NCBI GenBank assembly: GCA_046292385.1
Contig: JBKBRF010000021.1
Span: 1 to 64,000 of the forward strand
Length of the DNA: 64,000 nt
Direction: 5' to 3'
DNA from: Armatimonadota bacterium
GTDB taxonomy: Bacteria > Armatimonadota > SYMT01
This document shows, in pieces, positions 18,878 through 51,233 of the stretch (the first letter of the stretch is position 1; each line of letters starts with the position of its first letter). Position numbers and translations under genes: made by a program. Under the pieces are notes generated by a model. The model had not been told where the DNA came from. It worked only from the letters and a program-made list of their open reading frames with translations, and did no database searches.

Positions 18878-19143
18878 CCGGAGGAACAGCCGTAGGCTGT
18901 GCCGGAGGGCGGCACTTGTGACGGCCCCTGGGCGTCAGGGGCCGTCGCTCGACGGCGGCCGATTCAGCCCGTGAACCCAGACCCTGCTACGGTACAGCGC
19001 CGTGGCGCGGGAAGAGCGTTCCGAAGAGCACACCCGGAGCGGCCTGCTAACGGAGCGAAGCGGAGTGTGAAAAGGCCGCGGAGGGCCTTCGTTGCGGGAG
19101 GGCTGAAGCGGGCGACTAGGGCGCGGGGTCGGACCCTCGGCGC
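18878..19143 (+). repeat. structured dispersed element, copy 1
   Basis: Aligns with copies at 40389, 40713 and 50965; conserved hairpins and long-range helix. Confidence 0.85.
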
Positions 19144-19511
19144 CGACGCTGCCCTTCGGTTTGATACAGCTCCACACTCCGCCCGTCAGGATCCGATACA
19201 ACGGCCCGAAGTCCCCACTCGGTATCGGTCGGCTGGCTGCGCACATCTGTGCCGATCCTGCGAAGACGCAGCAGCGTGGCGTGGAGATCGCCCACGGCGA
19301 ACCCAAGGCGGAGGTCGCTGCGTTCCGCTGCGGCTCCCGACGGCAGCGGGTATAGCTCCAGCACCAGCTCGCCGAGACGGACAGAGTAATGCCGCGGACC
19401 GCTGCCGTGCTGCTCGGTACTGAGCTCCATGCCTACCGCGTGGTAGAAGTAGCAAAGCTCCTCCAGTCGCGCTGTCTTCAGCACCAATAAGGTCAGCATC
19501 ACGCTCGACAT
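19116..19511 (-). CDS. glyoxalase/bleomycin resistance (VOC) protein
   Basis: EQHGSGPRHY, VLELYP, RLGFAV, DPDGRSVEL. Confidence 0.85.
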   Translation of the reverse strand: MSSVMLTLLVLKTARLEELCYFYHAVGMELSTEQHGSGPRHYSVRLGELVLELYPLPSGAAAERSDLRLGFAVGDLHATLLRLRRIGTDVRSQPTDTEWGLRAVVSDPDGRSVELYQTEGQRRRRGSDPAP

Positions 19512-19534
19512 CGAGGCTCCCTCCACGACAGACG

Positions 19535-19570
19535 GCGAAGCCGGTCTCCCACACGAGAGACCGGCTTCGC
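19535..19570. terminator. hairpin downstream of the DUF2961 gene
   Basis: GCGAAGCCGGTCTC/GAGACCGGCTTCGC inverted repeat. Confidence 0.55.
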
Positions 19571-19597
19571 AGGAACGAACGCTCTCGAAGAGCGCTA

Positions 19598-21625
19598 CTA
19601 CCGGGCGACCGGAGCCAGCTTCAGGTAGTCGAGGCCGAACATGTACTGCTTGTCGGCCCGCGGGTTCGCGCCGGTGACGGTAACCGTCAGCTCGTTCGCA
19701 CCCGCCTTGAGCGTGTGGGTGCCCAGGTCCAGCTCTTCGGTGGGGGCGACGTCCGGGTTGTAGAAGTCGATCGGGTTCCCCGCCTTCTGTCCGTTGATCG
19801 CGAGCTGGTGGATGCCGTAGTCACGCGCCTTCAGGAAGCGGCCGACGACACGGTACGTGCCCGCAGCGGGGACGTTGAAGCGAAGGCGCAGCGTGTCGCC
19901 CACCTTCGGCCCCTGGCGCCACCAGAGCTGGCGCTCGCCGCTCAGGCCGGCCCAGTCCTGCCCGTCTGCCACGCCGGTGCGCTCCAGCACTTCCATCGTC
20001 TCGCCCTCAATGGCGCCCGCCACCTTGAACGGCTGGTACTCCGGCATCGGGCGCAGCTCCAGGTCGGCCGGCTTGATCGCGGCGAACTGGTCCTTCGCTC
20101 CCGGGATGGCGTACCAGTAGGCGACGGTCGCCATGTTCACGATCCGGTCTTCCCAGTGCCACAGCTCCATGTCGAACTTGAGGCTCTGGTTGAACGGGAT
20201 GCGGTCCATGATGTGGAACCGGTTGTTGCTGTATCGCCCGTAGTTGCCGGGACCGTTCTGGGTGCACGGCTGGGCGTGGTAGGCGTGGGTGAAGTAGCCG
20301 GTGTCGCACCACGCGTAGCCGAAGTAGTCCTCCGTGCCGGTGCCGAACCAGCTCGGGAACTTCTCGCCGTCGACGTAGACCTTCTCGTCGCCCTCGCCCC
20401 ACCAGGCGCGGACCGGATTGTCGACCGCCAGGGAGAGCCCCGCGAAGACGCCCTTCCCCTGCACCTGCAGGTGGTTGAGGTCCACGAACGGCCGGGTCTT
20501 CAGGTCGTAGCGAGAGTTGTAGCCGGCGCTGAAGTGCATGGTGCGCGGCGTCCACTGGTAGGGGGCGCTGCCGACCTGTCCCTGCAGGGTGACCGGCGCC
20601 TTGCCCATGTTCACCACCTGGATGCGCGCGTCCCGGCGGAACGGCATCACCCAGTGGCTCCAGAGCTCGCCCTGCTCCGTGCCGCCGAGCGGCAGCGTCT
20701 CGAAGACGTTCAGGCCGGGCGCAGCGCCGAAGAAGTCGCCCAGCGGCGCCTCGACCGTCTGCTGCCCGTCGAACGACATCCGCACCACCACGCCGCGGAG
20801 CGCCGCGGTCACGTCGTCCGCCGTCGGCCGGACGGTGAAGCGCGTCACGGCGCGGGAGCCCTTCAGCGCCGCCAGGTCGGCGGAAGCGCCGGGCTGCAGC
20901 GTCTTTTCGAAGCTCACCGTCTTGTCCGGCGCGATGCCGACCGTGTACGGGTGCGCCATCTTCGCCGCGGCATCGCGGATCTCGGCCGCCAGGTTCGGCA
21001 GCTCGGTCCGCGTGAACGACTGGACCGGCGTGCCCGACGCGTAGGTCCGGTAGTTGACGATGTAGTACGGCTTGTCCTGGTCGCAGGTGATCTTGCACGA
21101 CTTCGCGTACGCGATCGGGAAGTAGAGGTTGTAGCCGCGGGCGCGGACGCCGGCGATCGGCAGCGGGAAGCCGGAAACCTTACCGCCCAGCAGCTCCTCC
21201 ATCTTCTCCTCGATCACCGGCGTGGAGGCGCCGTCGAGATAGATGCGGAGCGTGCCGCTCGGGTTGGCGGACCAGATGCGGACCACCGCGCCGGGGCCCT
21301 TGGCGTCCATCATCACCTGCTCCTGGCGGCCGTCCCGCTCTTCGATGCGGAGGAAGCGGCCCCAGTCGTCGTTGGCGAACCAGCCCTCGTGGTCCGCGGC
21401 GGAGGTGGACCGGCGGTCGTGCGAGGAGAACTGGCCGGTGGAGTACTGCGGCGCCGGGAACTCGGCCATCCCACGGAGATCAGTCAGCTCCGTGAGCAGG
21501 CTGCGAGTGGAGACGCTGCTCGTCTCCGCCGCCGCCAGCGGCGCCGGCGCAACAGCGGCGAACCCTACCAGGGCGCCGGAGAGGCCGAGAAGGGCCAGGG
21601 GTTTTACAGGAAAAGGAATGTGCAT
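19598..21625 (-). CDS. DUF2961 / GH172-like secreted glycoside hydrolase
   Basis: GPGAVVRIWSANP, PLGDFF, WWGEGDEK, GTGTEDYFGYAW. Confidence 0.88.
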   Translation of the reverse strand: MHIPFPVKPLALLGLSGALVGFAAVAPAPLAAAETSSVSTRSLLTELTDLRGMAEFPAPQYSTGQFSSHDRRSTSAADHEGWFANDDWGRFLRIEERDGRQEQVMMDAKGPGAVVRIWSANPSGTLRIYLDGASTPVIEEKMEELLGGKVSGFPLPIAGVRARGYNLYFPIAYAKSCKITCDQDKPYYIVNYRTYASGTPVQSFTRTELPNLAAEIRDAAAKMAHPYTVGIAPDKTVSFEKTLQPGASADLAALKGSRAVTRFTVRPTADDVTAALRGVVVRMSFDGQQTVEAPLGDFFGAAPGLNVFETLPLGGTEQGELWSHWVMPFRRDARIQVVNMGKAPVTLQGQVGSAPYQWTPRTMHFSAGYNSRYDLKTRPFVDLNHLQVQGKGVFAGLSLAVDNPVRAWWGEGDEKVYVDGEKFPSWFGTGTEDYFGYAWCDTGYFTHAYHAQPCTQNGPGNYGRYSNNRFHIMDRIPFNQSLKFDMELWHWEDRIVNMATVAYWYAIPGAKDQFAAIKPADLELRPMPEYQPFKVAGAIEGETMEVLERTGVADGQDWAGLSGERQLWWRQGPKVGDTLRLRFNVPAAGTYRVVGRFLKARDYGIHQLAINGQKAGNPIDFYNPDVAPTEELDLGTHTLKAGANELTVTVTGANPRADKQYMFGLDYLKLAPVAR

Positions 21626-38942: not shown

Positions 38943-38947
38943 ATCCC

Positions 38948-39034
38948 GCCGAAGTCGAGTCGGCCGCGGGTGACGGCGACCACCACCTCCCGACCCATGA
39001 TCGTCCGCTCCAGGTGGGCGTCCACACTGTCGTC
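38948..39034 (-). repeat. diverged duplicate of an internal yjbQ segment (matches 39753-39839)
   Basis: GCCGAAGTCGAG.CGGCCGCGGGTGACGGCGACCACCACCTC...CCCATGATCGT...CAGGTGGGCGTC occurs twice, 805 bp apart. Confidence 0.9.
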
Positions 39035-39052
39035 GGCGGGAACGACGTCGCG

Positions 39053-39439
39053 CTACCAGATCCGAGTGACCGGGTACCGGTCTAGAGATGCATCTCCGCT
39101 CACGAGCGGAACCAACTCGGCAATCGCCTGCCCAATCAACAGACGATCGAACGGGTCCCGATGATGGAACGGAAGCGTCGTCAAGACCCCTGTGTGCTCC
39201 GGAAGAATCGGGAGGATCTCGAAACCGTTCCCCTGGATCGCCTCGTACATGAATGCTCGGTATGGCTCGTTGAGAACATACTTCCCCAGGCTGATCTTGA
39301 TAGCGATCTCCCAGTATGAGGCGGGACTCACAAGCACCTGGTTGTCCGGCGCTGCGATCTGCTGACGTGCGACCGCACTGAGGCGTCCGTCCCCGAGTGC
39401 GAACCAGAGCAGTGCGTGCGTGTCCAGGAGAAGTCTCAC
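39053..39439 (-). CDS. vapC: PIN-domain VapC toxin
   Basis: LLLDTHALLW, SYWEIAIK, HRDPFDRLL. Confidence 0.95.
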   Translation of the reverse strand: MRLLLDTHALLWFALGDGRLSAVARQQIAAPDNQVLVSPASYWEIAIKISLGKYVLNEPYRAFMYEAIQGNGFEILPILPEHTGVLTTLPFHHRDPFDRLLIGQAIAELVPLVSGDASLDRYPVTRIW

Positions 39440-39663
39440 CCCGTGTACTCAGCGAAGTCGGACAAGTGTTCGTCATCCTCCGTGAGGATCGTCAACTTCC
39501 CGCGGCAGTTCCCGAAGACCGGTCTTGGTCGATTGCCACGCGGGGGAACCAGTTCCGCCACCGGTTGGGCATCCCGCGTGATGATGATCTCCTCACCGCC
39601 GGCAAGCCGGTCAATCAGCGCGGAGAGTTCACTTTGAGCCTTCTCTACAGAAACCTCCACCAT
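39436..39663 (-). CDS. Phd/YefM family antitoxin
   Basis: AQSELSALID...GEEIIITR...PVAELVP; overlaps the toxin start. Confidence 0.9.
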   Translation of the reverse strand: MVEVSVEKAQSELSALIDRLAGGEEIIITRDAQPVAELVPPRGNRPRPVFGNCRGKLTILTEDDEHLSDFAEYTG

Positions 39664-39674
39664 CTCGTTCCTCC

Positions 39675-40097
39675 TCACTCTCCTATGATTTTAATCAGCA
39701 CCCGCTTGTCGCGCCGGCCGTCGAACTCGCCGTAGAAGATCTGCTCCCAGGTGCCGAAGTCGAGCCGGCCGCGGGTGACGGCGACCACCACCTCGCGGCC
39801 CATGATCGTGCGCTTCAGGTGGGCGTCGGCGTTGTCCTCTCCGGTGCGGTTGTGGTGGTAGACCTCGGGGCTCGGGTTGAACGGCGCCAGCTCCTCCAGC
39901 CACACTTCAAAGTCGTGCCACAAGCCGGGCTCGTGGTCGTTGATGAAGACGCTGCTCGTGATGTGCATCGAGTTGACCAGGCAGAGCCCCTCGCGGATGC
40001 CGCTCTCGCGGAGCTGCTGCTCCACCTGGGGCGTGATGTTCACGAAGCCGCGCTCGGTCGGCACGTGCAGAGTGAGGTAGTGGGTGTGGGATTTCAC
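39675..40097 (-). CDS. yjbQ: YjbQ (UPF0047) family protein
   Basis: [30 protein letters not shown]. Confidence 0.95.
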
Positions 40098-40388
40098 GGT
40101 AGGTTGCTCGTTCGGTTAGGAAGGCGGGTACGGGCGCAGGCGCTAGCGCTCTGTCGTTACCGGAAGGGTGCGGCGTGCGCCGGTTGGATAAGCTTCACGC
40201 TTGATGATACCGCCAGAGCATGCGGCGCTGGCCGGCTCCAAGGACTTCCGTCTGTACTACTCCCCGCGAGAGTCTTGCCGGGATGCGCAGATTCTGCCGG
40301 CGGTAATCGCGCGCGTGACCTTGCGAACCGGGAGGAGCCAGTCTCGAGGCCTCTTTGCTTCTCTTCGAGATGCAGCCTCGATCCCGCT

Positions 40389-40631
40389 GTCCGACCCCGC
40401 GCCCTTGTGCCGGGAGGCAGCCCTCCCGCGACGCAGGCCCTCCGCGGCCTTTTCACACTCCGCTGCGCTCCGTTAGCAGGCCGCTACGGGAGCTCACGTC
40501 GAGAAGCTTTTCCCGCGTCACCGCGTTGCACCGCCACAAGAGCAGGGTTCACGGGCTGCCTCCCGACCCTTCGAGTGACCACCCCTGCCGCCCAGGGGTG
40601 GTCACAACTGGCGCCCTACAGGCGCCTCCGG
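40389..40631 (-). repeat. structured dispersed element, copy 2
   Basis: Reverse complement aligns with copy 1 (e.g. AGCGGCCTGCTAACGGAGCG.AGCGGAGTGTGAAAAGGCCGCGGAGGGCC). Confidence 0.85.
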
Positions 40632-40712
40632 TCTGGGCGCGACAGCCAGTCCGCGGGTTAGCCAAAGCCGGTGCAGCACGACCCGCTTCCCGCCAGGCGG
40701 TGTGAGGACCTG

Positions 40713-40980
40713 CGGAGCCCGGAGGCGCTGCCGAAGGCAGAGCCGGAGGGGTTCACTTGCGACCACCCCTGCGAGGGGTGGTCGCTTGAGCCGCCCGGAG
40801 CGGCCCATGAACCGTCGCCTCGCTGCAGGCGCCGCCTGCGGACGCGGAACGGAGCGCGCGGGGAGCACGCCCGCAGCGCCCGCTAGCGCAGGCGCAGCCG
40901 GAGCGTGAAAGGGCCGCGGAGGGCCACCCACGCGGGAGGGCCGCTCCGGGTGGGGAGGGCGCGGGGTGGACCCTCGGCGC
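40713..40980 (+). repeat. structured dispersed element, copy 3
   Basis: Aligns with copies 1 and 4; back-to-back with copy 2. Confidence 0.85.
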
Positions 40981-41070
40981 GATCCTGATCTCGACTGATC
41001 AAGCATTCACCCGCCGTCTTGGGTTTGGTTGCGGCATCAGCCGCGCTGTGGCTGTATTGTGGCACGGAAA

Positions 41071-41421
41071 ATGACGCAGCTAATCACAAACATCGGGATA
41101 GGGTGCTCCTTAGTGCTCATGCTGCTGCTATCGCCAGTTCTGCTCCCACTCATAGCGCTGTCAAACGCGAGGAAAGTGAAGCGGCGACGGGAAACCGCCG
41201 AGCGGACCGCGTGTGCAAGGAGCGGGCAGTTCCTCGGAGACCGGGCGCTACATCTTGCGGACGAGGAGTGGCATCGATACGTCGAAGAGCTTCGGCGCGA
41301 GAAACCCCACGTTCGTCTACGCCTGCAGCGAGGTACTCACGCCATCTGCCCCGGCTGCGGTCAGCGTTATGTCTACCAGGAGGCCGCGCGGCACTTCATA
41401 AGGATCGCGGAGCCTTCCTGA
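41071..41421 (+). CDS. hypothetical membrane-anchored protein with two CxxC/S motifs
   Basis: N-terminal TM segment; CARSG and CPGCG. Confidence 0.6.
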   Translation: MTQLITNIGIGCSLVLMLLLSPVLLPLIALSNARKVKRRRETAERTACARSGQFLGDRALHLADEEWHRYVEELRREKPHVRLRLQRGTHAICPGCGQRYVYQEAARHFIRIAEPS

Positions 41422-41475
41422 GGGCCCCGGGGGGCCTCTCTGCGTCCTCGGCGGTCTCTGCGGTGGAATAAGGAG

Positions 41476-42201
41476 CTATTGGGAGCCGAAGAGCCGCTGA
41501 AAGAGCGACTTCCTCCGCTTCATGGCAAAGATCGGGAGCGTGCCGAAGCGCCGGATCTCCGTAGCCGGTCCGTAGCGACCCCAGGAGAAGCCACTGCCGA
41601 TCTCGCCCGCGCGGAGGTCGAAGATCTCATACGACGGGTCGAGCTGCCGCGCAAACGCCGCCAGCTCCGGATCCGGAGAGGCGAGGCACTCTTCCTGCGG
41701 GAGCACCCCCGGGTTGTGCCGCCACACCTCGCACAGGCGGTCCTCGTGGACGTCGTCAATGGCGCTCGTGAACGGCGGGGTATCCATCTTGAATACCTCC
41801 GTCAGGAAGTGCTCCAGCGAGGGGCTCTGGTGCAGGATCACCGGCGGATCGTGCGAAGCGAAATAGATCGGCGCCCAGTCGCGTGAGTCGGGGAGCAGGT
41901 CGGCCACCCAGAAGTTGCCGAAGCCGTCCGCGCCGATCGGCAGCCCGTGCGGGAAGGCGTCTGTGAACTCCCAGTCGAGCTCGCCGGTGAAGTCGACCGG
42001 CTCCACGGAGGCACCCTCGAAGCCGCGGCAGAACGCGAGCAGCTCCCGGATGTGGGGCGGCAGCGGGCACGGGAGCCGGGAGGCGAACAGCTCGATCTCG
42101 GCGTCGGTGAGGCCGGGAAGCAGCTCGATCCGCACCGGGTCGCCGTCCTCCGACTGCAGCGGCCGGCGGAGGGCGTCCTGAATGATCTCGACGGGTGTCA
42201 T
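41476..42201 (-). CDS. SMI1/KNR4 family protein
   Basis: GLTDAEI...LPCPLPPHIRELL, IGADGFGNFW, HDPP. Confidence 0.85.
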   Translation of the reverse strand: MTPVEIIQDALRRPLQSEDGDPVRIELLPGLTDAEIELFASRLPCPLPPHIRELLAFCRGFEGASVEPVDFTGELDWEFTDAFPHGLPIGADGFGNFWVADLLPDSRDWAPIYFASHDPPVILHQSPSLEHFLTEVFKMDTPPFTSAIDDVHEDRLCEVWRHNPGVLPQEECLASPDPELAAFARQLDPSYEIFDLRAGEIGSGFSWGRYGPATEIRRFGTLPIFAMKRRKSLFQRLFGSQ

Positions 42202-42376
42202 CGGGTGGATGTGGTTGATCGCGAGCTCTCCGGCAGAGCGTCCTGCCGCGGAATAGGTTCCACTCCGCGTCCTCTGCGTCCTCGGCGGTGAATTCCCGAA
42301 CAGGAACCCGCGCCGGGGTGCGCGAACTCTAAAGCCGTGGGGCGCACCGATGCGCGGCGCCCCGGGGAGCCAAACG

Positions 42377-43549
42377 ATGGACGCATTCCGGTTCAACCGC
42401 AGAGAGCTCTTGAAAGGCGCGGGCGCGCTTGCCGGGGCCGCCGCGTTCGGCAGCTTCGGGGCGGAGCGGCTCCTCGCCGCGCCGAAAGCCCCCACCTCTC
42501 CCGTTTCGATCGCGCGGTGCGCCACGTACGACCTCGCGACGGTGACCCGCCACCTGGAGACGATCTTCGACCAGCTCGGCGGCATCAAGAAGCAGGTCGC
42601 CGGGAAGACGGTCGTCGTCAAGGTGAACCTCACCGGCAGCCCGGAGGGGAAGGTCGACGGCCTCCCCGCCAATCGCACCTACCAGACCCACCCGAACACC
42701 GCGCTGGCGACGGCGATGCTGCTCGACCGCGCCGGGGCCCGCCGCATCCGCTTCGTGGAGTGCACCTACCAGCACGGCAGCATGGAAGAGTTCTTCCGCT
42801 CCGGCGGCTGGGATCTCCAGGCGCTGGCGGCGCTCAAGGCCGAAGTCGACTACGAGAACACCAGGAACCTGGGCAAGGGCAAGAGCTACACCCGCGTGAA
42901 GGTGCCGTGGGGCGGGTCGCTATTCCCCTCCTACGAGCTGAACCACTCGTACGTCGACTGCGACTATTACATCTCCCTCGCCAAGCTGAAGAACCACGCC
43001 AACGCGGGCGTGACCCTGGCGGTGAAGAACAACTTCGGCGTTACGCCGACGGCGCTCTACGGCCAGGCGGAGCACGACGAGAACACCACCAACGCGCGCG
43101 TGGCGATGTTCCACGAGGGCAAGATCAACCCGCCGGCCGGGGTGCCGCGAGAGCTGGACCCGACCAGCCCGCGGAAGCCGACTTACCGCGTGCCGCGGCA
43201 TACGGTCGACTCGCTCGGTATCCGGCCGATCGACCTGGCGCTCATCGATGGAGTGGAGACCGCTTCCGGCGGCGAAGGCCCGTGGGTCGGCAAGCTGACC
43301 CCGCGGAAGTCGCACGTGCTGATCGGCGGACGCAACGCGGTCTGCACCGACGCGATCGCCACCGCGGTGATGGGCTACGATCCGCTGGCGAAGTCCGGCA
43401 CCGGCCCGTTCCCGGGCGACAACCACCTGACGATGGCGATGGAGCTCGGGCTCGGCACGTGCAACCCGAAGCAGATCGAGGTGCGCGGTCTCGCGCTGAA
43501 GCAGGCGGTCCATCCGTTCGAGTGGGAGCCGGCGGAGCGCCACTTCTGA
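42377..43549 (+). CDS. Tat-exported DUF362 domain protein
   Basis: NRRELLK; VKVNL, KLKNH...GVTLAVKN, D-A motif. Confidence 0.9.
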   Translation: MDAFRFNRRELLKGAGALAGAAAFGSFGAERLLAAPKAPTSPVSIARCATYDLATVTRHLETIFDQLGGIKKQVAGKTVVVKVNLTGSPEGKVDGLPANRTYQTHPNTALATAMLLDRAGARRIRFVECTYQHGSMEEFFRSGGWDLQALAALKAEVDYENTRNLGKGKSYTRVKVPWGGSLFPSYELNHSYVDCDYYISLAKLKNHANAGVTLAVKNNFGVTPTALYGQAEHDENTTNARVAMFHEGKINPPAGVPRELDPTSPRKPTYRVPRHTVDSLGIRPIDLALIDGVETASGGEGPWVGKLTPRKSHVLIGGRNAVCTDAIATAVMGYDPLAKSGTGPFPGDNHLTMAMELGLGTCNPKQIEVRGLALKQAVHPFEWEPAERHF

Positions 43550-43581
43550 CGCGCCGGAAGGTAACCAGCGACTTCATAAGG

Positions 43582-43613
43582 GCGGGTGCCGTGTCCTCGG
43601 CACCCGCTTTTCC
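43582..43613 (+). terminator. intrinsic terminator
   Basis: GCGGGTGCCG/CGGCACCCGC followed by TTTT. Confidence 0.75.
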
Positions 43614-43639
43614 GTTCATAGCCCCGAGGATGATCGAAC

Positions 43640-43918
43640 ATGCTTGCGTTTGTCGACTTCGTGCCGCGGCAGGTGCGCGCGCCGCGCCTCAGCTTCTCGC
43701 TGTCCGACATGCAGGGACAGTGCGAGACGTTCGAGGCTGCGCTCCAAGCCGCGAATCCCTGGCTCCGGCGGGCGAACGCCCGCGTGGTGAACGTGGAGAC
43801 GGTGGTGCTGCCGAACCTCTGGGCGCCGGGCGAGCAGGGCAGCACCGATCCCGTCATCGCGACCGCCGAGCACGCCAGCTTCCACCAGTTCATCCGCGTC
43901 TGGTATCACGCCGAATAG
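43640..43918 (+). CDS. small hypothetical protein
   Basis: VVNVETVVLPN...QFIRVWY; GAGG RBS. Confidence 0.75.
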   Translation: MLAFVDFVPRQVRAPRLSFSLSDMQGQCETFEAALQAANPWLRRANARVVNVETVVLPNLWAPGEQGSTDPVIATAEHASFHQFIRVWYHAE

Positions 43919-44152
43919 TCTTTCCGCCAGCGGCGGGACTTCGCTGTTCCAGGTTGGCAAGTTGGCAGGTTGCAGGTTAATTCCCCGCGTAGCCCGGCTC
44001 GGGAGCCTGTGAGCCTGCGGACCTGGAGCCCGCCAACTCGCTTCCGGCAGCAGCTACTCAGAACGTTTCCCCACTTAACTCTCCTGGCATGTCCCTTAGG
44101 GAGGCCCCTCGCGGGCGACCGCGGGGGCCCCGGAACACGTCGGGAGGGAGAC

Positions 44153-44560
44153 ATGAGACAGATCATGAGAATTGCCGGTGCGCTGGCGTTGGCCGGCGGC
44201 CTGGTACTGCCGGTCGGCGCGCAGGAGACGACGGAACACCTGCCGTCGGTGGAGATCAACGGTCAGCGGGTGCTCACGATTCGGGTCGGCGCGGGCGGCC
44301 TGACACCGGAGGAACGGGCGGACGTCGTGCGCCAGCGGTTGGGGCCGATCTTGACGATGCCGGACCTCAAGGCGGAGGACATCTGGATCAAGCAGGAGCG
44401 GCGAGGGCAGACCGCCGCGATCTACGTGCGGGACCGATTGTTGATCACGGTGGACCGCAGCCTGGCGAAGGCGAACGACACGATGCCGCTGCCGCTGGCG
44501 CGGATCTGGGCCAACAACCTTCGCGAGACACTGCCCGAGATCGACGTCACGGTCCGGTAG
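44153..44560 (+). CDS. secreted hypothetical protein
   Basis: Signal peptide; GGAG RBS; ERA...LA.IWA..L pattern. Confidence 0.8.
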   Translation: MRQIMRIAGALALAGGLVLPVGAQETTEHLPSVEINGQRVLTIRVGAGGLTPEERADVVRQRLGPILTMPDLKAEDIWIKQERRGQTAAIYVRDRLLITVDRSLAKANDTMPLPLARIWANNLRETLPEIDVTVR

Positions 44561-44569
44561 CTGAGCGCT

Positions 44570-44610
44570 GAACAGCGGGCCGGAGGATTTTACCCTCCGG
44601 CCCGCTGTTC
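44570..44610. terminator. bidirectional terminator hairpin
   Basis: GAACAGCGGGCCGGAGG/CCTCCGGCCCGCTGTTC between convergent genes. Confidence 0.8.
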
Positions 44611-44628
44611 TTGCGGGAGAGCCTATCC

Positions 44629-47421
44629 CTATCCCGCGAAGAGCTTCAGCCGCCGCTCCAGCTTTTCGCGCCGCTCCAGCAGCTCGTCGCGCTGGGCGCG
44701 GGCCTTCTCCACCACCTCCGCGGGAGCGCGGCTGACGAAGCTCTCGTTGGAGAGCCGCCCGTCGATCCCGGCGAGGTCCTTCGTGATGGCGGCGAGCTCC
44801 TTGTTCAGGCGCGCCGTCTCCGCCGCGGGGTCGACCAGCCCCGCCATCGCTACGGAGATCTCCATCCCCGCCGCCAGCGCGGTCGAGCTGGGCCCCTCCG
44901 GCTTCTCCCGAGTCACCCGGCAGCGGGCGCTCTGCTCCACGTACGGGATCTCCAGCTTACCGTCACCCAGGATCGAGACGTCGACCGTCCGCTGCTGCGC
45001 GTTCAACTCCGCCTTGAGATTGCGGATGGCACGGGTCACCTCCATCACCGTTTCCATCCGGGCCTCCGCGTCGGCGCTCCGCAGTTCCGCCAGGGCGCCC
45101 GGGTACTGCGCGCGGATCAGGGCCGCGCCTTCGGTCGCGCCGGGGAGCGACTGCCAGATTTCCTCCGTGATGAACGGCACGAACGGATGCGCCAGCCGCA
45201 GCGAGGCCTCCAGCACTGCCACCAGCATCTCCCGGATCAGCGACGGGTCTTCGCTGCGCAGGCGCGGCTTCGCCAGCTCCACGTACCAGTCCGCGAACTC
45301 GTCCCACAGGAAGTGGTAGAGCGTCCACGACGCCTCCCCCAGGGCGTACCGGTCGAGCGCGTCGTTCACCGCGGCGGAGGCGGCGGCGAAGCGGGAGAGG
45401 ATCCAGCGGTCCGAAAGCTCCAGCTCCTGCCGCGCCGCCAGCTCCTCCAGGGAGCGGCGCGCCACCTCCGCGCCTTCCACGTTCATCAGGACGAACCGGC
45501 TGATGTTCCAGAGCTTGTTGCAGAAGAAGCGCATCTGCTCGATCTGCTCCGCCCGCGCCAGCCGGTCGTCCGGGCCGGTCGCCGTCTTGCCGCCCGACTC
45601 CCACTGCATCTTGAAGCGGATGTCCTGGCTCTCGCTCACCAGGCTGGTGAGGCCGAAGCGGGTGGCGTCCGCCCCGTACAGCCGGATCAGCTCCAGCGGG
45701 TCCACGCCGGTGCCGAGGGACTTGCTCATCCGCTTGCCGTCTTCGGTCATCACGGTGGCGTGTACCAGGACCTCGTGGAACGGTACCTCCCCGAGGAACT
45801 CCTCGCCGGTCATGATCATCCGTGCCACCCAGAGGTAGAGGATGTCCCGGCCGGTGATCATCAGGTCGGTCGGGTAGAACGCCGCCAGGTCATCCGTCCG
45901 CTCCGGCCAGCCCAGCGTGGCGTGGGGCCAGAGGGCGCTGCTGAACCAGGTATCCAGCACGTCCGGGTCCTGCTCCAGCTCGCTGCCGCCGCAGCGCGGG
46001 CACTGCGACGGCGGCTCCACCGAGGCGATCGGCTGCGCGCTCTCCCCCACCTGCAGCTCGCCGGAGGGACCGCGGCTCACCGCATCGTCGCACGCCAGGC
46101 AGTAGAAGAGCGGAATGCGGTGTCCCCACCAGAGCTGGCGGGAGACGCACCAGGGGCGGATGTTCTCCAGCCACTCCGTCTCCATCTGCCGAAACCGCTC
46201 CGGCGTGAAGGTCACCCGGTTCGCGCGGATCGCCGCCAGCGCCTTCGCCGCCAGCTCGTCGCAGCGGGCCCACCACTGCAGCTTGAGCAGCGGCTCCACC
46301 ACCGTGCCGCACTTGTCGTGGTGGCCCACCGAATGGGTGTAGTCCTCCACCTTCACCAGCAGGCCCTGCGCCTCCAGGTCCGCCACCACCCGCTTGCGGG
46401 CTTCCTTCCGCGGCAGCCCCGCGTAGGCGCCGGCCGCCCCGGTGGTCGTTCCCGCGTCGTCCAGCACGGTGATCGCCGGGAGCAGCTCCGGGTGGCGCTG
46501 GGCAATGTCCCAGTCGTTGGGGTCGTGCGCCGGGGTCACTTTCACGGCGCCGGTGCCGAACTCCGCGCTCACGTGGTGATCCGCCACCACCGGGATCTCC
46601 CGGTCCACCAGCGGCAGCCGCAGCGTCTTGCCCACCAGGCCGGCGTAGCGGGGGTCGGACGGGTTCACCGCCACCCCCGTGTCACCGAGCATCGTCTCCG
46701 GGCGGGTGGTCGCCACCACCAGCCCCTCGCCGCCGTCCGCCGCGGGGTAGCGGAGGTGCCACAGGTGCGACGGCACCTCCTTGTACTCCATCTCCAGCTC
46801 GGAGAGGGTGGTGCGGCACTGCGGGCACCAGTTCACGATCCGCTCCGCGCGGTAGATCCAGCCGCGCTCGTAGAAGCCGACGAACGCGCTCAGCACTGCG
46901 CGGGCGTAGCCGCTGCGGGTGTAGAGCTTCCGGAGCGCCCAATCGGCGGTCTGCGGCCCCTCCTCCACGAACTCGTCCAGCGTAAAGCGGGTGCGGGTCC
47001 AGTCGTAGGAGCAGCCGAGCGCCTTGAGCTGGCCCAGGATGGTGCCGCCGTACTTGAGCGTCCACTCCCGCGCGCGCTGGAGGAAGCCCTCGCGGCCGAG
47101 GGTCCAGCGGTCGAGCCCCTCCGCGCGGATCATCTGCTCCACCTTCATGTTGGTGGCGATGCCGGCGTGGTCGGTGCCGGGCACGCAGAGGGTGTTGAAG
47201 CCCTGCATCCGCTTGCGGCGGATCACCAGGTCGTGGATCGCGTGCTGCAGCGCGTGGCCCATGTGCAGCTCGCCGGTTACGTTCGGCGGCGGGATGGTGA
47301 CGCAGAACGACGGCGCCTCCGACTTCCCGGCAGGGGTAAAGTCGCCGCGCTCCAGCCAGAACTGGTAGAGACGCGCCTCCACGTCGGTAGGATCGTATGC
47401 CTTCGAAAGCTCGCGTGCCAT
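44629..47421 (-). CDS. valS: valine--tRNA ligase
   Basis: PPPNVTGELHMGH, WCVSRQLWWGHRIP, DVLDTWFSS, RMSKS, C-terminal coiled coil. Confidence 0.98.
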   Translation of the reverse strand: MARELSKAYDPTDVEARLYQFWLERGDFTPAGKSEAPSFCVTIPPPNVTGELHMGHALQHAIHDLVIRRKRMQGFNTLCVPGTDHAGIATNMKVEQMIRAEGLDRWTLGREGFLQRAREWTLKYGGTILGQLKALGCSYDWTRTRFTLDEFVEEGPQTADWALRKLYTRSGYARAVLSAFVGFYERGWIYRAERIVNWCPQCRTTLSELEMEYKEVPSHLWHLRYPAADGGEGLVVATTRPETMLGDTGVAVNPSDPRYAGLVGKTLRLPLVDREIPVVADHHVSAEFGTGAVKVTPAHDPNDWDIAQRHPELLPAITVLDDAGTTTGAAGAYAGLPRKEARKRVVADLEAQGLLVKVEDYTHSVGHHDKCGTVVEPLLKLQWWARCDELAAKALAAIRANRVTFTPERFRQMETEWLENIRPWCVSRQLWWGHRIPLFYCLACDDAVSRGPSGELQVGESAQPIASVEPPSQCPRCGGSELEQDPDVLDTWFSSALWPHATLGWPERTDDLAAFYPTDLMITGRDILYLWVARMIMTGEEFLGEVPFHEVLVHATVMTEDGKRMSKSLGTGVDPLELIRLYGADATRFGLTSLVSESQDIRFKMQWESGGKTATGPDDRLARAEQIEQMRFFCNKLWNISRFVLMNVEGAEVARRSLEELAARQELELSDRWILSRFAAASAAVNDALDRYALGEASWTLYHFLWDEFADWYVELAKPRLRSEDPSLIREMLVAVLEASLRLAHPFVPFITEEIWQSLPGATEGAALIRAQYPGALAELRSADAEARMETVMEVTRAIRNLKAELNAQQRTVDVSILGDGKLEIPYVEQSARCRVTREKPEGPSSTALAAGMEISVAMAGLVDPAAETARLNKELAAITKDLAGIDGRLSNESFVSRAPAEVVEKARAQRDELLERREKLERRLKLFAG

Positions 47422-47454
47422 TGCCTCACTCCGCCGCGCCCAACCGGCGCCAGA

Positions 47455-47700
47455 AAACAAAAAGCTCCCTCGTCCCCGAAGGACGAGAGAGTCACTTCTC
47501 CCGCGGTACCACCTTCATTCCCCCGCGGCCGGCGCGAGGGCTCTCTTGCGCGATGACGGGCGCACCCGGTCCCGCACGGGACCCGGCTCCGGGGCGACGT
47601 TCGGCGCCGGCACGCGAGGAGCGCTCTCAGCCGGTGACGCTCCCTCTCTGGCGCTGCCCCCGCGGAACCCGCGGACGCCTACTCTTCCCCATCACAGCCG
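47455..47700 (-). ncRNA. T-box riboswitch leader (Val, GUC specifier)
   Basis: Stem I GA/AGAGA/GCTGAGA motifs; probable specifier GTC at 47598-47596; T-box AAGGTGGTACCGCG at 47515-47502; terminator with U tract. Confidence 0.93.
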
Positions 47701-47719
47701 GAAAACCAGTTGTGGCGGA

Positions 47720-47748
47720 ATGATAACACGAGGTCCGGACGTCGGCAA
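47720..47748 (-). promoter_or_regulatory. valS promoter
   Basis: TTGCCG-17 bp-TATCAT. Confidence 0.6.
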
Positions 47749-48086
47749 CCGTGCCGCGCGGATGCGGTGACACCGGTCCGGAACGAGTACCCCTGAAGGA
47801 GCACCTTGTTCGTGTAGCAGCCCGCTGATGAAGGTCAGCTAGATAGCTGGGAAGCCAGGCGGAGCATCCGTCGGGCCGCGAGGCATTGGAATACCTCGCT
47901 AGAAGGCCTGCGGCCACGCGTCCTCCGGACGCCCGAGCTACGCCCATCTGAGCCCCCGCAGGGGGGTCCCCCGTCCGGGGCCTAAAACTTCGTGCTGTGG
48001 TTGCCGCGGATTCAACCGCCCGGCATATGGCTTCGAAGCCAGGACCGGAGAGTGAGCTGCGGGACTCAGTCTCCGGTCTACGGCCA

Positions 48087-49550
48087 CTACCGAATACCGG
48101 TGCCGGCCAGCACCCGAACGGTGTACTTGATCTTGCCCTTCTTCTTCAGCTTCTTGAAGCGCAGGGTCGTCTTCGCCGTCTCACCCGCGGCGAGCACCCC
48201 GTCCGACCCGACGTTCAGGTCGAGGTACGGGCTGCCGGCCGGGAGCGTCTCAGTCGTGCTGCCGCTGGCGTTGACCAGGGTATCAACTGGGCTCAGCTCG
48301 TCCAGCACCAGGGAGACGGGGCCGGTGATCGGCTGCTTGGAGACGTTCTTCACGGACACCTTCTGGAGGTACTGCTTCTTCTTGGGCGAGTACTTGAAGC
48401 CGCTGGTCTTCACCTTGACCCGCTTCGTGACGTCCTCCACCTGGACCGGCGCGTTGGCCGGGTTCGCGCGGGCGATCACCTGCACGCCGCCGGCGAGGGT
48501 CGCCTTGAAGGCGATCTGGCCCTGGTCGTTGATTCCCTCGCGGCTCAGCTCCACCGTCTGGACCGTTCCGCCCAGCAGCGTATCGCCGGTCGCGATCACC
48601 TTGTCCGCCACCGGGTCCGGTCCGGTGAAGATGCCCCAGCCGGACGGCACCTTCGCCAGGAACGCCACCGTCCCGTTCGCGATCGTCACCGCCTGAAAGT
48701 TGCTGTAGCCGTGGTCGGTGCTGGCGATCAAGGTCTGGTTCTTGTAGACCTCCTGCCTTCCGCCTTCCAGATAGCCGATATAGGCGACGTCCCCGTCATT
48801 CGCGGGGCTGTCGTGGAAGCCGATGAAGCGGTCGGTCGTGTCCGCGATGCGGCTGACCGCGCCGTTCGAGTAGGAGACGATGGCGCTCGGGCCGGCGCGG
48901 CCGTCGACCCGGTAGGTGGCGTAGAAGGCCGCGGAGAAGCCGAGGGCGGTCGGATTGTTCGGGTCCCCCTCGAAGTTCAGGTCCGGGTCCCTCACGTAGA
49001 TGAACTGGCTGTCGTCCTCCGTGCTGACCGCCGGGCTTCCGGGCACGCCGCCGTTCAGATCGGTGAGGAAGATCCCGCTCGCCCGTCCGGTGCCACCGGC
49101 GAGGTAGGCCACCACGCCGCCCTCGACCGACGGCTTGTTCGGCGAGAGCCCCTGCCGAACATCGAAAACCGTGCCGCCGCTGCTGGTGTAGAGCCCGATG
49201 AACGACTGCGGCGGATCGACGTTGGGGTTCCAGCGGGAGCCGATGAAGACGACCTGTCCGGAGCTGGTGAGGTCGAACTCCTGGGAGATGGAGGTGAACG
49301 GACCGGTGGGGGAGCTGGTCACCAGCGCTTCCGGATCGTCCCCACTCCCGCGGAAGATCCCCGAGCCGCCCCCGACGATGCGGGCCCAGTAGGCCACCTG
49401 CCCCGAGGCATTGATCGCCGGACGGCTGAGGGAGTCGACCTCCGTGCGGGTGTCCTTGATGATCGTGAAAGTGTAATTGGCGGCGCGTGCCGGCAGCGCG
49501 GCGAAGAGCCCTCCCACCAGGAGAAGGCCCAAGAGCAAACGATACTTCAA
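48087..49550 (-). CDS. secreted protein with NxxGxxAF-type tandem repeats and a Lys-rich C-terminal domain
   Basis: Signal peptide; INASGQVAY, NDGDVAY, INDQGQIAF. Confidence 0.8.
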   Translation of the reverse strand: MKYRLLLGLLLVGGLFAALPARAANYTFTIIKDTRTEVDSLSRPAINASGQVAYWARIVGGGSGIFRGSGDDPEALVTSSPTGPFTSISQEFDLTSSGQVVFIGSRWNPNVDPPQSFIGLYTSSGGTVFDVRQGLSPNKPSVEGGVVAYLAGGTGRASGIFLTDLNGGVPGSPAVSTEDDSQFIYVRDPDLNFEGDPNNPTALGFSAAFYATYRVDGRAGPSAIVSYSNGAVSRIADTTDRFIGFHDSPANDGDVAYIGYLEGGRQEVYKNQTLIASTDHGYSNFQAVTIANGTVAFLAKVPSGWGIFTGPDPVADKVIATGDTLLGGTVQTVELSREGINDQGQIAFKATLAGGVQVIARANPANAPVQVEDVTKRVKVKTSGFKYSPKKKQYLQKVSVKNVSKQPITGPVSLVLDELSPVDTLVNASGSTTETLPAGSPYLDLNVGSDGVLAAGETAKTTLRFKKLKKKGKIKYTVRVLAGTGIR

Positions 49551-49788
49551 AACTACTCCTCGTGCGCCCGTCGGGCGCTAGCGTATCACGTCCCCCGCGG
49601 ACTTCCGACGTCCGGGAGAAGCCGAGTCAGTTCGTCGGCAGGCAGCGGCCCGCAAAGCAGTCGCGCGGGGAGGTAGCTCCAGGCGGTTTGCCCAGGCAGC
49701 GAGCTAGCGCCGTTGCAGGGGGAGTGTAGCACCCAACCAGGCAGCCGCCTGTGAACCAAGCCACAGGGCCGCGCCCAGGCAGGGACCG

Positions 49789-50829
49789 TTACCGCCGGTA
49801 CTTGAGCGTCCAGATCTCGGTCGACTGCGGGAGGCGGGAGCGGGCCAGGAGCGTCACGTCGCTGGCGAGGCGGCTGACGGCGTAGGGGCTGGCGGCGATG
49901 AAGTCGTCCACCGGGCGCAGCTTCGCGGCGGCGCCGGACATGCCGGGGGTGGAATAGGCCATCGGGACCACCACCGGCGGCTTGAGCTGCTCGGAGATCG
50001 CGACCGCCTGCCGCGGCGTGAGCCCCTCGCCCACCGGCAGCAGCAGCACGTCGACCTTCCCCAGCGCGGCCAGCTCGGCGTCGGTGGGCGGCTGGGTGGG
50101 GGCGCCCAGGTGGGCGAGCCGCAGCGGTCCCGCTTCGATCACGTACGCGGTGTTGCCGCCGCGAGTCGGCACCGGGGTGATCCGCAGGTCGCCACGGGTG
50201 CCCTGGGCGGCGCGAAGCACCTGCTTGGTGTCGTCCTGGAAGGCGCGGACGCCTGCCTCGTAGCTGTGGCGGGGATCGCTGCTGCTGACCGTCACGAAGT
50301 GCGCGCCGGCTTCCGGCGAGGGAATCCCCGCGGCGGCCGGGTCGAACGGGTCGGTCACCACCCCCACCCCGCCCGGCGAGTGGATGTAGAACGAGGAGTA
50401 GCCGAGCCACTGGAGCGTCACCTCGGCGTCCCCCGTCGTGCTGAGCGGGGGGTGGTCGTTCGGGAGGCCTTCCGGCGGCGTGGCAGGCCGTTCCGCGGCC
50501 ACCGGCGGCTGCGCGCCGTTTGCCGGGTCAGTACCGGGAGCAACCGGTCTGTTTCCCGCGGGCGAATTGGCGGGAGCCCCGCCATTCGGCGCGTCGGTAG
50601 TGGCGGGGACTGGGGCATTGCCGGGGCTGGAGGCGCCGGGACTGTTCTGCGGGTGGGAGCTCTGCGCCCGGCGGTCCGGACCGTTCGCCGGCGTGGGCGG
50701 CGGCGGAGCCGGGCGGGAGACTACCGCCACGATGCCGATCGTGAGCACGGCCAGGACTGCCGCGATCAGGCCGGCCCGCGGCGGGCCGCCGGGGCGGACG
50801 GGAGAGGGTTCCGGCTTTTCCGTACTCAT
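49789..50829 (-). CDS. membrane-anchored MBL-fold metallo-hydrolase-like protein
   Basis: TM plus Pro-rich linker; WLGYSSF, VTDPF, DVLLLPVG; His metal ligands appear degenerate. Confidence 0.8.
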   Translation of the reverse strand: MSTEKPEPSPVRPGGPPRAGLIAAVLAVLTIGIVAVVSRPAPPPPTPANGPDRRAQSSHPQNSPGASSPGNAPVPATTDAPNGGAPANSPAGNRPVAPGTDPANGAQPPVAAERPATPPEGLPNDHPPLSTTGDAEVTLQWLGYSSFYIHSPGGVGVVTDPFDPAAAGIPSPEAGAHFVTVSSSDPRHSYEAGVRAFQDDTKQVLRAAQGTRGDLRITPVPTRGGNTAYVIEAGPLRLAHLGAPTQPPTDAELAALGKVDVLLLPVGEGLTPRQAVAISEQLKPPVVVPMAYSTPGMSGAAAKLRPVDDFIAASPYAVSRLASDVTLLARSRLPQSTEIWTLKYRR

Positions 50830-50964
50830 AGCAGGCGTGCTCCTGGTGACGTGGCGCCACGGAGATTCTACGATGAGCGCGGCGGGATGTCCCACTGGCT
50901 GGTGTGAGGTCCGAGAGAAGCGCGCTGCTGAAACTCCACGCCTCCGCGCCCTCGCATCTTCCGT

Positions 50965-51233
50965 CCCGAAGTTCCCACCCCGTGCCCTCCCCGGACGGAG
51001 CGGCCCTCCCGCGTGAGTGGCCCTGCGCGGCCCTTTCACGCTCCGCCTCCGGCTTCGCTAGCGGGCGCTACGGGCGTGCTACTCGCCGCGTTGCGCTCCG
51101 CGACCGATAGCGACGTCTTCGGCGAGACGGCGATTCACGGGCCGCTCCGTCCGGCTCAAGCAGCCACCCCTCGCCAGGGGTGGCCACAAGGGGAACCCTT
51201 CGGACCTGCCTTCGGCACACCCTCCGGGCTCCG
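50965..51233 (-). repeat. structured dispersed element, copy 4
   Basis: Reverse complement closely matches copy 3. Confidence 0.85.

Follow-up and report, generated by a model that had tools for sequence, protein, structure and literature searches.

A lineage-restricted family of large, covarying and interspersed non-coding elements in an Armatimonadota genome

What are the four divergent, structured copies that lie in a 64,000-nucleotide stretch of an Armatimonadota contig (the window), and what preserves their fold? An initial annotation, made from the sequence alone, offered three options: a non-autonomous mobile element, a ribozyme-like RNA or a single-stranded DNA signal. Here, we found that the copies belong to a lineage-restricted, interspersed, non-coding family without a match among catalogued RNAs or jumping genes. 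The non-autonomous mobile element is the best supported of the three options, and the other two describe ways in which the fold could be used. Our preferred reading, which we consider reasonably probable, is a non-autonomous structured element, mobile or once mobile, that is moved in trans.

A covariance model of the unit (278 positions, 59-pair structure) recovered all four copies where they had been placed, with scores of 209-240 bits. The parts are as follows.

18869 to 19147, plus strand: copy 1, solitary A-type module of the c1 subfamily (covariance-model match 221.5 bits, full length, 1-278)
19148 to 19190, plus strand: probable 3' tail of copy 1, a short hairpin region with an approximate end, conserved in c1-type solitary units
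40253 to 40303, plus strand: left end (LE) of the composite, with a subterminal hairpin (BLAST LE match, C21:40252-40303)
40304 to 40376, minus strand: 3' extension of the A module, between module and LE (about 145 nt are conserved 3' of the A module in paired copies)
40377 to 40645, minus strand: copy 2, A-type module, outward-pointing left arm of the composite (covariance-model match 209.4 bits, 1-278)
40646 to 40709, no strand: spacer separating the 5' ends of the head-to-head pair (64-bp gap)
40710 to 40983, plus strand: copy 3, B-type module of the young c3 subfamily, right arm of the composite (covariance-model match 236.9 bits)
40984 to 41050, plus strand: 3' extension and right end (RE) of the composite (RE match C21:40985-41050)
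50960 to 51236, minus strand: copy 4, solitary B-type module of the c4 subfamily (covariance-model match 239.7 bits)

The helix arms quoted for copies 1 and 2 (18963-70/19100-07 and 40411-23/40553-65) can be read directly from the sequence, the variants of hairpin A match their earlier description, and the covarying helices of all four copies are real. The proposed division into two subfamilies, copies 1 and 2 versus copies 3 and 4, reappeared on the 278-column core (80% identity for c3/c4, 73% for c1/c2, 61-70% for cross-pairs). Two claims stood only in part. The element of about 260 bp exists, but its limits had to be moved, as conservation extends about 20 nt further 5' and 45-145 nt further 3'. 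Likewise, all four copies are present, but copies 2 and 3 are not independent: they form the two arms of one 798-bp composite (40253-41050) with sharp and dissimilar ends. Its LE hairpin has 7-bp arms with one mismatch (AGAGTCT/AGATTCT; family consensus AGAATCT/AGATTCT), and its RE terminates in ...GCTGTG after a GCGGC/GCCGC hairpin. Copy 1 lies between convergent ORFs (16035-18560, plus strand; 19598-21625, minus strand), and an alignment of 32 c1-type solitary copies revealed about 45 conserved nucleotides 3' of the ...GGGGT motif. As reported before, the window copies show no terminal inverted repeats, target-site duplications, ORF or nearby transposase.

Is the fold under selection? We compared 70 distinct sequences from three genomes with 500 shuffles and a slid-partner control. 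Paired cells made up 91.3% of the observed alignment versus 77.1% after shuffling and 36-49% with slid partners, changes on both sides of a pair occurred in 467 cells versus 125 and affected 38 of the 59 pairs, and no shuffle (0/500) matched the observed value on any of five covariation measures. Single positions of the long helix take up to five standard pair types (e.g. GC:30 CG:18 AU:17 GU:2 UG:2). The fold belongs to the stated strand of the module, with 344 G·T versus 42 A·C cells (p=4e-60). Stems on terminal branches carried 69 wobble-keeping C>T versus 25 pair-breaking G>A changes, compared with 191 versus 256 in unpaired columns (Fisher p=6e-8). Paired double changes on these branches kept pairing in 113 cases and broke it in 14, a signal that would look the same whether it arose from changes in unseen source copies or from selection at each locus. 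Private substitutions in the two youngest clusters amounted to 0.29 per stem column and 0.67 per unpaired column. Covariation, strand-specific wobble and terminal-branch compensation thus confirm the selection on the fold suggested earlier.

In the module, a 5-bp helix closes a hairpin next to a G·A pair, a long-range helix measures 15-17 bp, and the inner junction combines unpaired motifs that are almost invariant with repeated internal loops of the form C-GNA-G/C-GGA-G. Among the genome's own copies, CGCGG is kept in 114/115, GCTA in 109/115 and GTGAAA in 103/115, and the terminal loops are mostly G-N-A closed by C-G (tip 1 in 75 and tip 2 in 41 of 115). For copy 3, the minimum free energy is -176.3 kcal/mol (z -4.7). 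This elaboration and the invariant junction bases exceed the needs of known transposase-recognised hairpins, which counts against the mobile reading.

Could the family instead consist of amplified genes for a trans-acting structured RNA? A single copy or a divergent A/B pair would then be transcribed and serve as part of a ribonucleoprotein or, via its many GGA/GGAG motifs, as a multivalent sponge for an RNA-binding protein. The complex fold with its near-invariant unpaired motifs, the strand-specific wobble signature and the sparing of stems in young copies all speak for such a role, and the main text of a recent report proposes a Csr/Rsm sponge role for the analogous TwoAYGGAY repeat (bioRxiv 10.64898/2026.09.22.753630). 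However, CsrA (PF02599) has no match in the three carriers (G000, G005, G006) while it is present in G007 and the control genomes were positive, and we rejected membership among the Csr/Rsm sponge RNAs on this ground. In addition, no sigma-70-type promoter was found in 40100-41250, the region of the composite, and in c1-type units upstream conservation ends after about 20 nt. We hold this explanation to be distinctly unlikely, and the size and placement of the family speak further against it.

The predicted large genome-wide family was indeed found, with 147 covariance-model matches in the 7.0-Mb genome G000. Two other genera of the host's family carry 14 (G005) and 8 (G006) matches and five other genomes of the class carry none; at family level the element is present in 3/7 genomes and absent from 4/7, and in the phylum sample it occurs in 3/151 genomes, with no match in the remaining 148. 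Metagenome contigs contain two more copies, both diverged (132 and 126 bits). The 147 copies share 50-96% identity, a number and a spread far above any known family of trans-acting RNA genes. Some have extra hairpins inserted in their loops, and copy 3 is 89-93% identical to 10 other copies. Identity to the nearest neighbour has a median of 84% and a maximum of 96%, values that do not demonstrate recent movement and so count against the mobile reading.

How are the units built and bounded? All 27 adjacent pairs are head-to-head, 26 of them joining one A-type with one B-type module; the spacers measure 14-73 bp in 25/27 pairs, and their sequence is about 50-60% conserved among the 26. Four more head-to-head pairs occur in G005. 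The young B-type copies have identical ends common to all, with an abrupt loss of similarity outside: eight are LE-B-RE units of about 400 bp and twelve are LE-rc(A)-spacer-B-RE composites, most of about 800 bp and two of about 615-640 bp. A BLAST search with LE from a young solitary copy returned 22 matches genome-wide, upstream of which similarity breaks off sharply; RE has 29 matches, and here young copies lose similarity at the identical base. The dinucleotide TC directly precedes LE in 14/22 copies, CTGTGT is enriched 7.1-fold in the 3' flanks, and CTCTGTG-like repeats follow 8/29 right ends. Neither terminal inverted repeats nor target-site duplications were seen, a point against the mobile reading, and the c1-type minimal units have no LE and RE segments. 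It also counts against this reading that no empty site was seen; in four soil and root runs the contigs were all short and none joined across an element.

In practice, units of this kind cause breaks in assemblies and may be misread as riboswitches or genes for small RNAs. They also inflate spurious ORF calls, with 11 overlapping ORFs in one cluster.

Placement is intergenic, with 1/136 copies inside a called ORF, and gene ends are typically 30-500 bp away. Together with the hairpin of the 3' tail and with doublets that put one sense module on each strand, this is what a host-domesticated cis element like REP/BIME or ERIC would show, read through within neighbouring mRNAs or bound as DNA and acting as terminator, insulator, mRNA-end protector or nucleoid protein site; at a head-to-head pair, transcripts from both directions would each meet a sense module. 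Yet orientation relative to neighbouring genes is random (35/34/33/28 for all copies), solitary units being split 36:36 relative to the upstream gene, and no intrinsic-terminator-like site lies inside the 798-bp composite. Moreover, a 59-pair fold with invariant junctions goes far beyond such roles, and the absence from 4/7 family genomes shows that the element serves no general host need. We therefore consider a domesticated cis element unlikely.

Some copies lie in a prophage or a cas operon. On contig C40, a prophage that measures about 23 kb contains seven, of A and B types and all on one strand, one of which fills the 355-bp spacer between terminase and portal genes; in a related phage contig this spacer is 72 bp long and has no model match. 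In G005, two copies sit between cas6e and cas1 of the cas operon. Copies at such sites argue against trans-acting RNA genes. Because of the sharp ends, the composites, the insertions in prophage and cas operon and the copy numbers of 147, 14, 8 and 0, we favour the mobile option.

Which enzyme could move such an element? A check for adjacency to RAYT or IS110 genes, as proposed earlier, gave no support: no recurrent gene or transposase adjoins the copies, which again counts against the mobile reading. The model gave only partial matches (10.3 and 6.1 bits; E 0.014 and 0.21) on the IS110 locus of C91 (L067); the six remaining loci, IS110 on C6 and five Y1 loci (L062-L066), had none. Two RAYT-like Y1 genes (C40:62260-62790 and C83:9667-10392) have another short repeat in their flanks, C5 with the third long Y1 gene was covered by the covariance model, and none of the five Y1 genes has one of the LE (22) or RE (29) matches nearby. 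A full-length IS200/IS605 parent with the same ends was accordingly rejected, as no Y1 gene carries them. Y1 genes also occur in non-carrier genomes and IS110 is missing from the carrier G005 (97% complete), both of which count against the mobile reading.

A stand-alone relic of an RNA-guided transposon, i.e. a TnpB/IscB omega-RNA scaffold or an IS110 bridge RNA whose transcript runs into the flank and whose nuclease or recombinase was lost or left unassembled, would fit the dissimilar ends with subterminal hairpins and without terminal inverted repeats or target-site duplications. It would also fit the module that abuts RE and points outward, the second module of composites that points out through LE, and the two IS110-family genes of the genome, one of which lies on a 1.4-kb contig and may be a collapsed repeat. 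We regard it as very unlikely: TnpB is absent from the genome by both PF07282 and PF01385 with both controls positive, neither HEARO RF02033 nor another family matched in the Rfam searches, and the c1-type minimal units do without LE and RE. We thus rejected a TnpB omega RNA and, given the weak partial matches at C91, none at C6 and no IS110 in G005, an IS110 bridge RNA. No reverse transcriptase was found in the genome; searches for IscB RRXRR (PF14239) and IS91 Y2 had 0 matches but, with controls equally silent, carry no information.

Does the family belong to a known class? The earlier statement that it matches no recognised family holds, with no Rfam match at gathering score, no family up to E 10 around three of the four copies and nothing up to E 0.1 on five relatives' loci. 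A REP is a simple hairpin 20-40 nt long, whereas a REPIN measures about 100 nt; both are intergenic, reach tens to hundreds of copies, favour inverted doublets alongside solitary units and are associated with RAYT (Y1 HUH) transposases. Our family is similarly intergenic and numerous, combines solitary units with inverted doublets of short spacer (27 pairs, 25 at 14-73 bp), has a single-strand fold as presumed recognition feature and coexists with RAYT-like Y1 genes. In contrast to a short palindromic REP, however, each arm folds over about 280 nt with several junctions, and whereas a RAYT gene is flanked by its own repeat, the C40 and C83 genes are flanked by another and do not adjoin the family. 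IS200/IS605 elements have dissimilar ends with subterminal hairpins, no terminal inverted repeats and no target duplication. Ends resembling a miniature IS200/IS605 are limited to the c3-type subfamily, since c1-type units contain no LE or RE. As with TnpB/IscB guide RNAs, a structured non-coding module lies beside the right end and points outward, but TnpB, an Rfam match and a Y1 gene with these ends are missing and many units have no LE/RE. ERIC, Correia and bcr1-type repeats are 100-170-bp near-palindromes with terminal inverted repeats, non-autonomous and with folding transcripts. Our family is likewise non-coding, intergenic, folding and non-autonomous, but it has no terminal inverted repeats and one strand folds into several long-range helices.

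Judged from the main text of its report, the closest analogue is the extended TwoAYGGAY repeat of Pseudomonas (RF01731; bioRxiv 10.64898/2026.09.22.753630), a structured, covarying unit with tens to about 200 copies per genome, doublets that are 68.4% divergent with a median spacer of 249 bp, and a suspected mobile-like spread without a known mobilising enzyme. As far as that text describes them, both families are structured, covarying and non-coding, vary widely in copy number between relatives, are enriched in divergent doublets (27/27 here) and have short T/G/C-rich repeats in their flanks. The likeness in copy number, doublets and flanking repeats is one of behaviour, not of membership: RF01731 had no match in the window at gathering score, none up to E 10 in 40300-41100 and 18700-19300, and none up to E 0.1 on the five relatives' loci. 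Unlike in TwoAYGGAY, hairpin loops here have no AYGGAY, and GGA motifs are located in internal loops. By comparison with the structures in that main text, the fold is larger (about 280 nt, 59 pairs), the doublet spacer shorter (14-73 bp) and the doublet a union of two diverged subtypes (26/27). The host phylum differs as well, and the carriers here have no CsrA.

Each unit is built around a module that spans about 280 nt and folds on one particular strand. We propose that this folded single strand, be it a transcript or single-stranded DNA, acts in cis. A putative factor supplied in trans would recognise the folded strand and copy or move the element, in a manner resembling REPIN/RAYT or extended TwoAYGGAY repeats. 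Such recognition would explain why selection maintains the fold wherever a lineage continues to multiply. We lean slightly toward RNA over single-stranded DNA as the working form. It is also conceivable, though very improbable, that the module acts by itself. As a folded RNA resembling a ribozyme or guide, or as folded single-stranded DNA, it would bring about its own copying or insertion with host enzymes alone; the obligate head-to-head A/B doublet would then work as a unit of two parts, and the same-strand run in the prophage would result from replication-coupled, strand-specific integration. If true, bacteria would harbour a new kind of mobile nucleic acid that needs no protein, or host proteins only.

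In summary, interspersed repeats of bacteria are usually short hairpins, and here a repeat with a fold as elaborate as that of a riboswitch or small ribozyme is kept by selection in about 150 copies. Together with the extended TwoAYGGAY repeats, as the main text of their report presents them, the family suggests that large structured units in divergent doublets are a recurring mobile-like class in distant phyla. If so, the three-genera alignment and the metagenome copies would be useful for finding the mobilising machinery, and the family could help to settle if the element works as RNA or as single-stranded DNA.

The four copies of the folded element described in the initial annotation are present in the window, align over ~280 nt and carry the quoted helix arms where these had been placed.

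18869-19147, plus strand: copy c1, A-type
40377-40645, minus strand: copy c2, A-type
40710-40983, plus strand: copy c3, B-type
50960-51236, minus strand: copy c4, B-type

The proposed division into two subfamilies is real: on a common 278-column core, c3 and c4 are 80% identical, c1 and c2 73%, and cross-pairs 61-70%. Do these copies belong to a large genome-wide family, as had been predicted? Indeed, a BLAST search with the window copies hit 155 places in the source assembly G000 (7.04 Mb, 91 contigs, 68.9% G+C), 136 of these over at least 200 bp, and a covariance model of the element (R1, built from 39 copies) found 147 matches there. Two further carriers, from other genera of the same family, hold 14 (G005) and 8 (G006) model matches. 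No match came from the remaining 5 genomes of the class, so that the family includes 4 non-carriers beside its 3 carriers, and in an even sample of the phylum (151 genomes) matches were confined to these three assemblies. When each species was represented by a single genome, a pattern scan returned at least 78 loci; among those listed, 7 contained 9 matches confirmed by the model, all in one Armatimonadota MAG, and the remaining 71 were chance matches. With a stricter pattern, 2 contigs were retrieved from JGI metagenomes and confirmed by the model at 132 and 126 bits, and metagenome runs from soil, root and hot spring contain near-identical DNA.

From the four window copies alone, RNAalifold predicted 72 pairs, 20 of them changing on both sides. 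In alignment A5, 71 copies from three genomes were aligned to the model, and a 59-pair structure was written from the column statistics of the aligned copies.

Pairing in the aligned copies, as observed, after shuffling, and with the 3' partner slid by 1-3 columns
Cells forming a standard pair: observed 91.3%; shuffled 77.1%; slid 36-49%
Cells changed on both sides: observed 467; shuffled 125; slid 67-130

Change on both sides occurs in 38 of the 59 pairs, and none of the shuffles (0/500) attained the observed value in any of five covariation measures. Selection on the fold, which the initial annotation had inferred from four copies, is shown for the lineages that multiply. In core numbering, the fold comprises the following parts.

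5' domain: mainly in the source genome
53-60 with 67-74: hairpin
75-79 with 252-256: closing helix, with pair 75:256 as CG 36, AU 13 and UA 7
80 with 251: G·A pair, G80-A81 being invariant in 115/115 copies of the source genome and 20/21 copies of the relatives
83-99 with 233-249: long helix, with as many as five types of standard pair at a position
Inner junction: near-invariant CGCGG, GCTA, GTGAAA and GGGAGGG
Internal loops: three, of the form C-GNA-G / C-GGA-G
Tips: mostly G-N-A triloops closed by C-G

Whole extra hairpins interrupt the loops of some copies, and in others a stem-loop is swapped for a shorter one of different sequence; a conserved fold typically shows both.

Which of the two strands folds? 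Among 6,418 pair cells in the 115 copies of the source genome, G·T outnumbers A·C by 344 to 42 (p=4e-60), which identifies the folding strand as the one originally stated. This count decides the matter, since the minimum free energies of sense (-176.3 kcal/mol, z -4.7) and antisense (-168.1 kcal/mol, z -4.0) are too close to do so. We reconstructed changes along a FastTree tree by the Fitch method, on a MAFFT alignment forced to 278 columns. On terminal branches, which include change in unseen source copies, double changes kept pairing in 113 cases and broke it in 14. Single changes in the stems of these branches were C>T, leaving a wobble pair, in 69 cases and pair-breaking G>A in 25, compared with 191 and 256 in unpaired columns (Fisher p=6e-8 for stems against unpaired columns). 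Private substitutions in the two youngest clusters, of 19 and 13 copies, amount to 0.29 per stem column versus 0.67 per unpaired column, from the small numbers of 34 substitutions in 118 stem columns and 107 in 160 unpaired columns. For each resting copy, selection on the fold is only suggested.

With gene calls from a crude GC3-filtered ORF set, only 1 of 136 copies lies inside a called ORF, the four orientations relative to the flanking genes are represented 35, 34, 33 and 28 times, and solitary copies run with the upstream gene as often as against it (36 each). A role as leader, riboswitch or terminator is disfavoured by this random orientation. Adjacent copies form 27 pairs, every one of them head-to-head; 26 join an A-type with a B-type copy, and in 25 the spacer measures 14-73 bp. 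G005 has four such pairs among its 14 copies. In G006 and part of G005, several copies instead form same-strand clusters at distances of 300-800 bp (G006 C236:9016-11970 and C47:3673-4974; G005 C3:830636-831696).

Young B-type copies are 89-93% identical to c3, and their similarity breaks off at identical bases. Their left end (LE) comprises ~60 nt, starts with TGTAC and has a subterminal hairpin; the right end (RE) terminates in ...GCTGTG, preceded by a GCGGC/GCCGC hairpin. LE and RE are dissimilar, and no target duplication was seen at them. These elements comprise eight LE-B-RE units of ~400 bp and twelve LE-rc(A)-spacer-B-RE composites, which mostly measure ~800 bp, with two of ~615-640 bp.

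40253-41050: the window pair, an LE-rc(A)-spacer-B-RE composite

Neither a sigma-70-type promoter-like site nor an intrinsic terminator was found inside the composite. In a search for empty sites, contigs of 200-800 bp from four soil and root DNA runs that fell on 32500-52400 bridged no element. The 32 solitary c1-type units are without LE and RE segments and are minimal units of ~335 nt, and the folded module is thus the common denominator of the family. Directly after 8 of 29 right ends lie short CTCTGTG/TCTGTGT-like repeats, often ending ...ctctgtgtcgaaa (c3-type examples in G000 at C8:56487, C10:72539, C16:36750, C18:35249 and C76:341); the same repeats precede some left ends of c3-type elements, whose own ends (TGTAC..., ...GCTGTG) resemble the repeat unit. 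In the 3' flanks, CTGTGT is enriched 7.1-fold. These flank repeats may be an insertion target or a by-product.

Outside the window, the element has spread into two gene clusters. The first is a prophage on contig C40 of the source genome (~17000-40400; loci L159 and L160), in which Pfam recognises a terminase, an SPP1-type portal, a capsid, head- and tail-completion proteins and a Rad52-like protein. Its intergenic spacers hold seven full copies, with an eighth immediately beyond the prophage; every one of the eight runs on the minus strand, even though the genes switch direction within the region. The element density of C40, 12.7 copies per 100 kb, is the highest in the genome. Both types, A and B, are represented among the four copies that were aligned; three of the four have their nearest relative elsewhere in the genome, and the copies are therefore separate arrivals rather than local duplications. 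The terminase-portal spacer measures 355 bp with an element copy, versus 72 bp and no model match in a related phage contig (terminase 58% identical, portal 35%). Did the phage bring the element? Relatives of its terminase are encoded on 406 viral stretches; 80 such viral contigs (887,865 bases) gave no model match, and the pattern scan of viral contigs gave none either. We therefore reject a phage origin and conclude that the host family colonised the prophage, not the reverse. The second cluster is a type I-E CRISPR-Cas operon in G005 (cas7, cas5, cas6e, cas1, cas2; contig C3, locus L069, 8600-19600), with two copies between cas6e and cas1 and two further copies downstream of cas2, beyond the array side.

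A search of the whole window with Rfam at gathering score assigned no family to the element, and relaxed searches (to E 10 in the surroundings of copies 1-3, to E 0.1 at five loci of the relatives) gave sub-threshold matches at chance level. Two other features were reported.

27-78, minus strand: serC leader (RF00517), full-length, 66.1 bits
36928-36951, plus strand: CRISPR-DR28, single 24-nt match, 36.3 bits against a gathering score of 35, E 0.007

The serC leader motif was described from Alphaproteobacteria; here it stands in an Armatimonadota genome. The CRISPR-DR28 match is a lone hairpin within the region of ORFs 34722-36863/36640-37371 and is probably due to chance.

When the 473 proteins encoded no farther than 2.5 kb from a copy were clustered, no recurrent neighbour emerged. 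The largest cluster consists of 11 false ORFs that translate the element itself, among them a long one that crosses the repeat in the window (51013-52074, plus strand), with 10 similar ORFs elsewhere; posing as a 'protein family', they are a trap for automatic annotation. Searches for TnpB and reverse transcriptase gave no matches while their controls responded; those for IscB RRXRR and IS91 Y2 gave none either, but with silent controls they are uninformative. Two IS110 and five Y1 genes exist (the Y1 genes on contigs C51, C22, C40, C83 and C5), none near a copy, and at these seven loci the model found two weak partial matches, both at the IS110 locus on C91 (10.3 bits, E 0.014; 6.1 bits, E 0.21). 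Both gene types were rejected as partners because their presence does not track the element across 8 genomes of the class: the carrier G005 is without IS110, and Y1 genes are present in non-carriers too. The RAYT-like Y1 genes inspected, paralogues of 176 and 241 aa (G000 C40:62000-62940 and C83:9400-10420), are flanked by a short repeat other than the element (GGAGTGCGG...CCGCACTCC), one copy of which truncates an element at C23:108586. Apparently, the genome holds a second family of repeats, of the REP-like kind.

The folding strand could be RNA or single-stranded DNA. An RNA is suggested by the invariant U·G pair 78:253 (68/70), the frequent wobble pairs, the G·A pair next to a helix and CUUG-type loops in the inserts. 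Single-stranded DNA is suggested by the numerous C-GNA-G triloops, which are unusually stable in DNA, and by the single strand on which the prophage copies run. A first comparison of solitary copies with GC skew placed 30 on the C-rich strand versus 10 (p=0.002); minus the eight linked copies of C40 the count is 25 versus 12, and consecutive solitary copies are co-oriented in 11 cases versus 13, no excess over chance. A replication-strand bias was therefore set aside.

How does the element compare with known systems? The closest published description found, judging from the accessible part of the preprint, is that of the extended TwoAYGGAY repeats of Pseudomonas, which are multi-copy and structured, have short repeats in their flanks and form doublets that are 68.4% divergent; their authors suspect that they spread in a mobile-like manner and act as a Csr/Rsm sponge (bioRxiv 10.64898/2026.09.22.753630). 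The element shows the same behaviour, but it is without a model match, AYGGAY loops and CsrA, so that membership fails. A CsrA sponge was likewise rejected, as the carriers are without CsrA. With REPIN/RAYT systems the element has the doublet logic in common, but it differs in size and is without a linked RAYT. The end anatomy of IS200/IS605 derivatives is matched by one subfamily only, and a transposase is not shared.

In summary, the initial interpretation is supported overall: most likely, the element is non-autonomous and would be recognised in trans by way of its folded single strand. We favour this reading because the module alone is shared by all subfamilies, every expanding lineage has retained the fold, and the ends differ among subfamilies. 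Searches of the literature on Armatimonadota non-coding RNA and on structured interspersed repeats turned up no description of the family, although such searches do not prove that none has been published. The element family is a new and unusually elaborate one of the bacterial structured-repeat kind.
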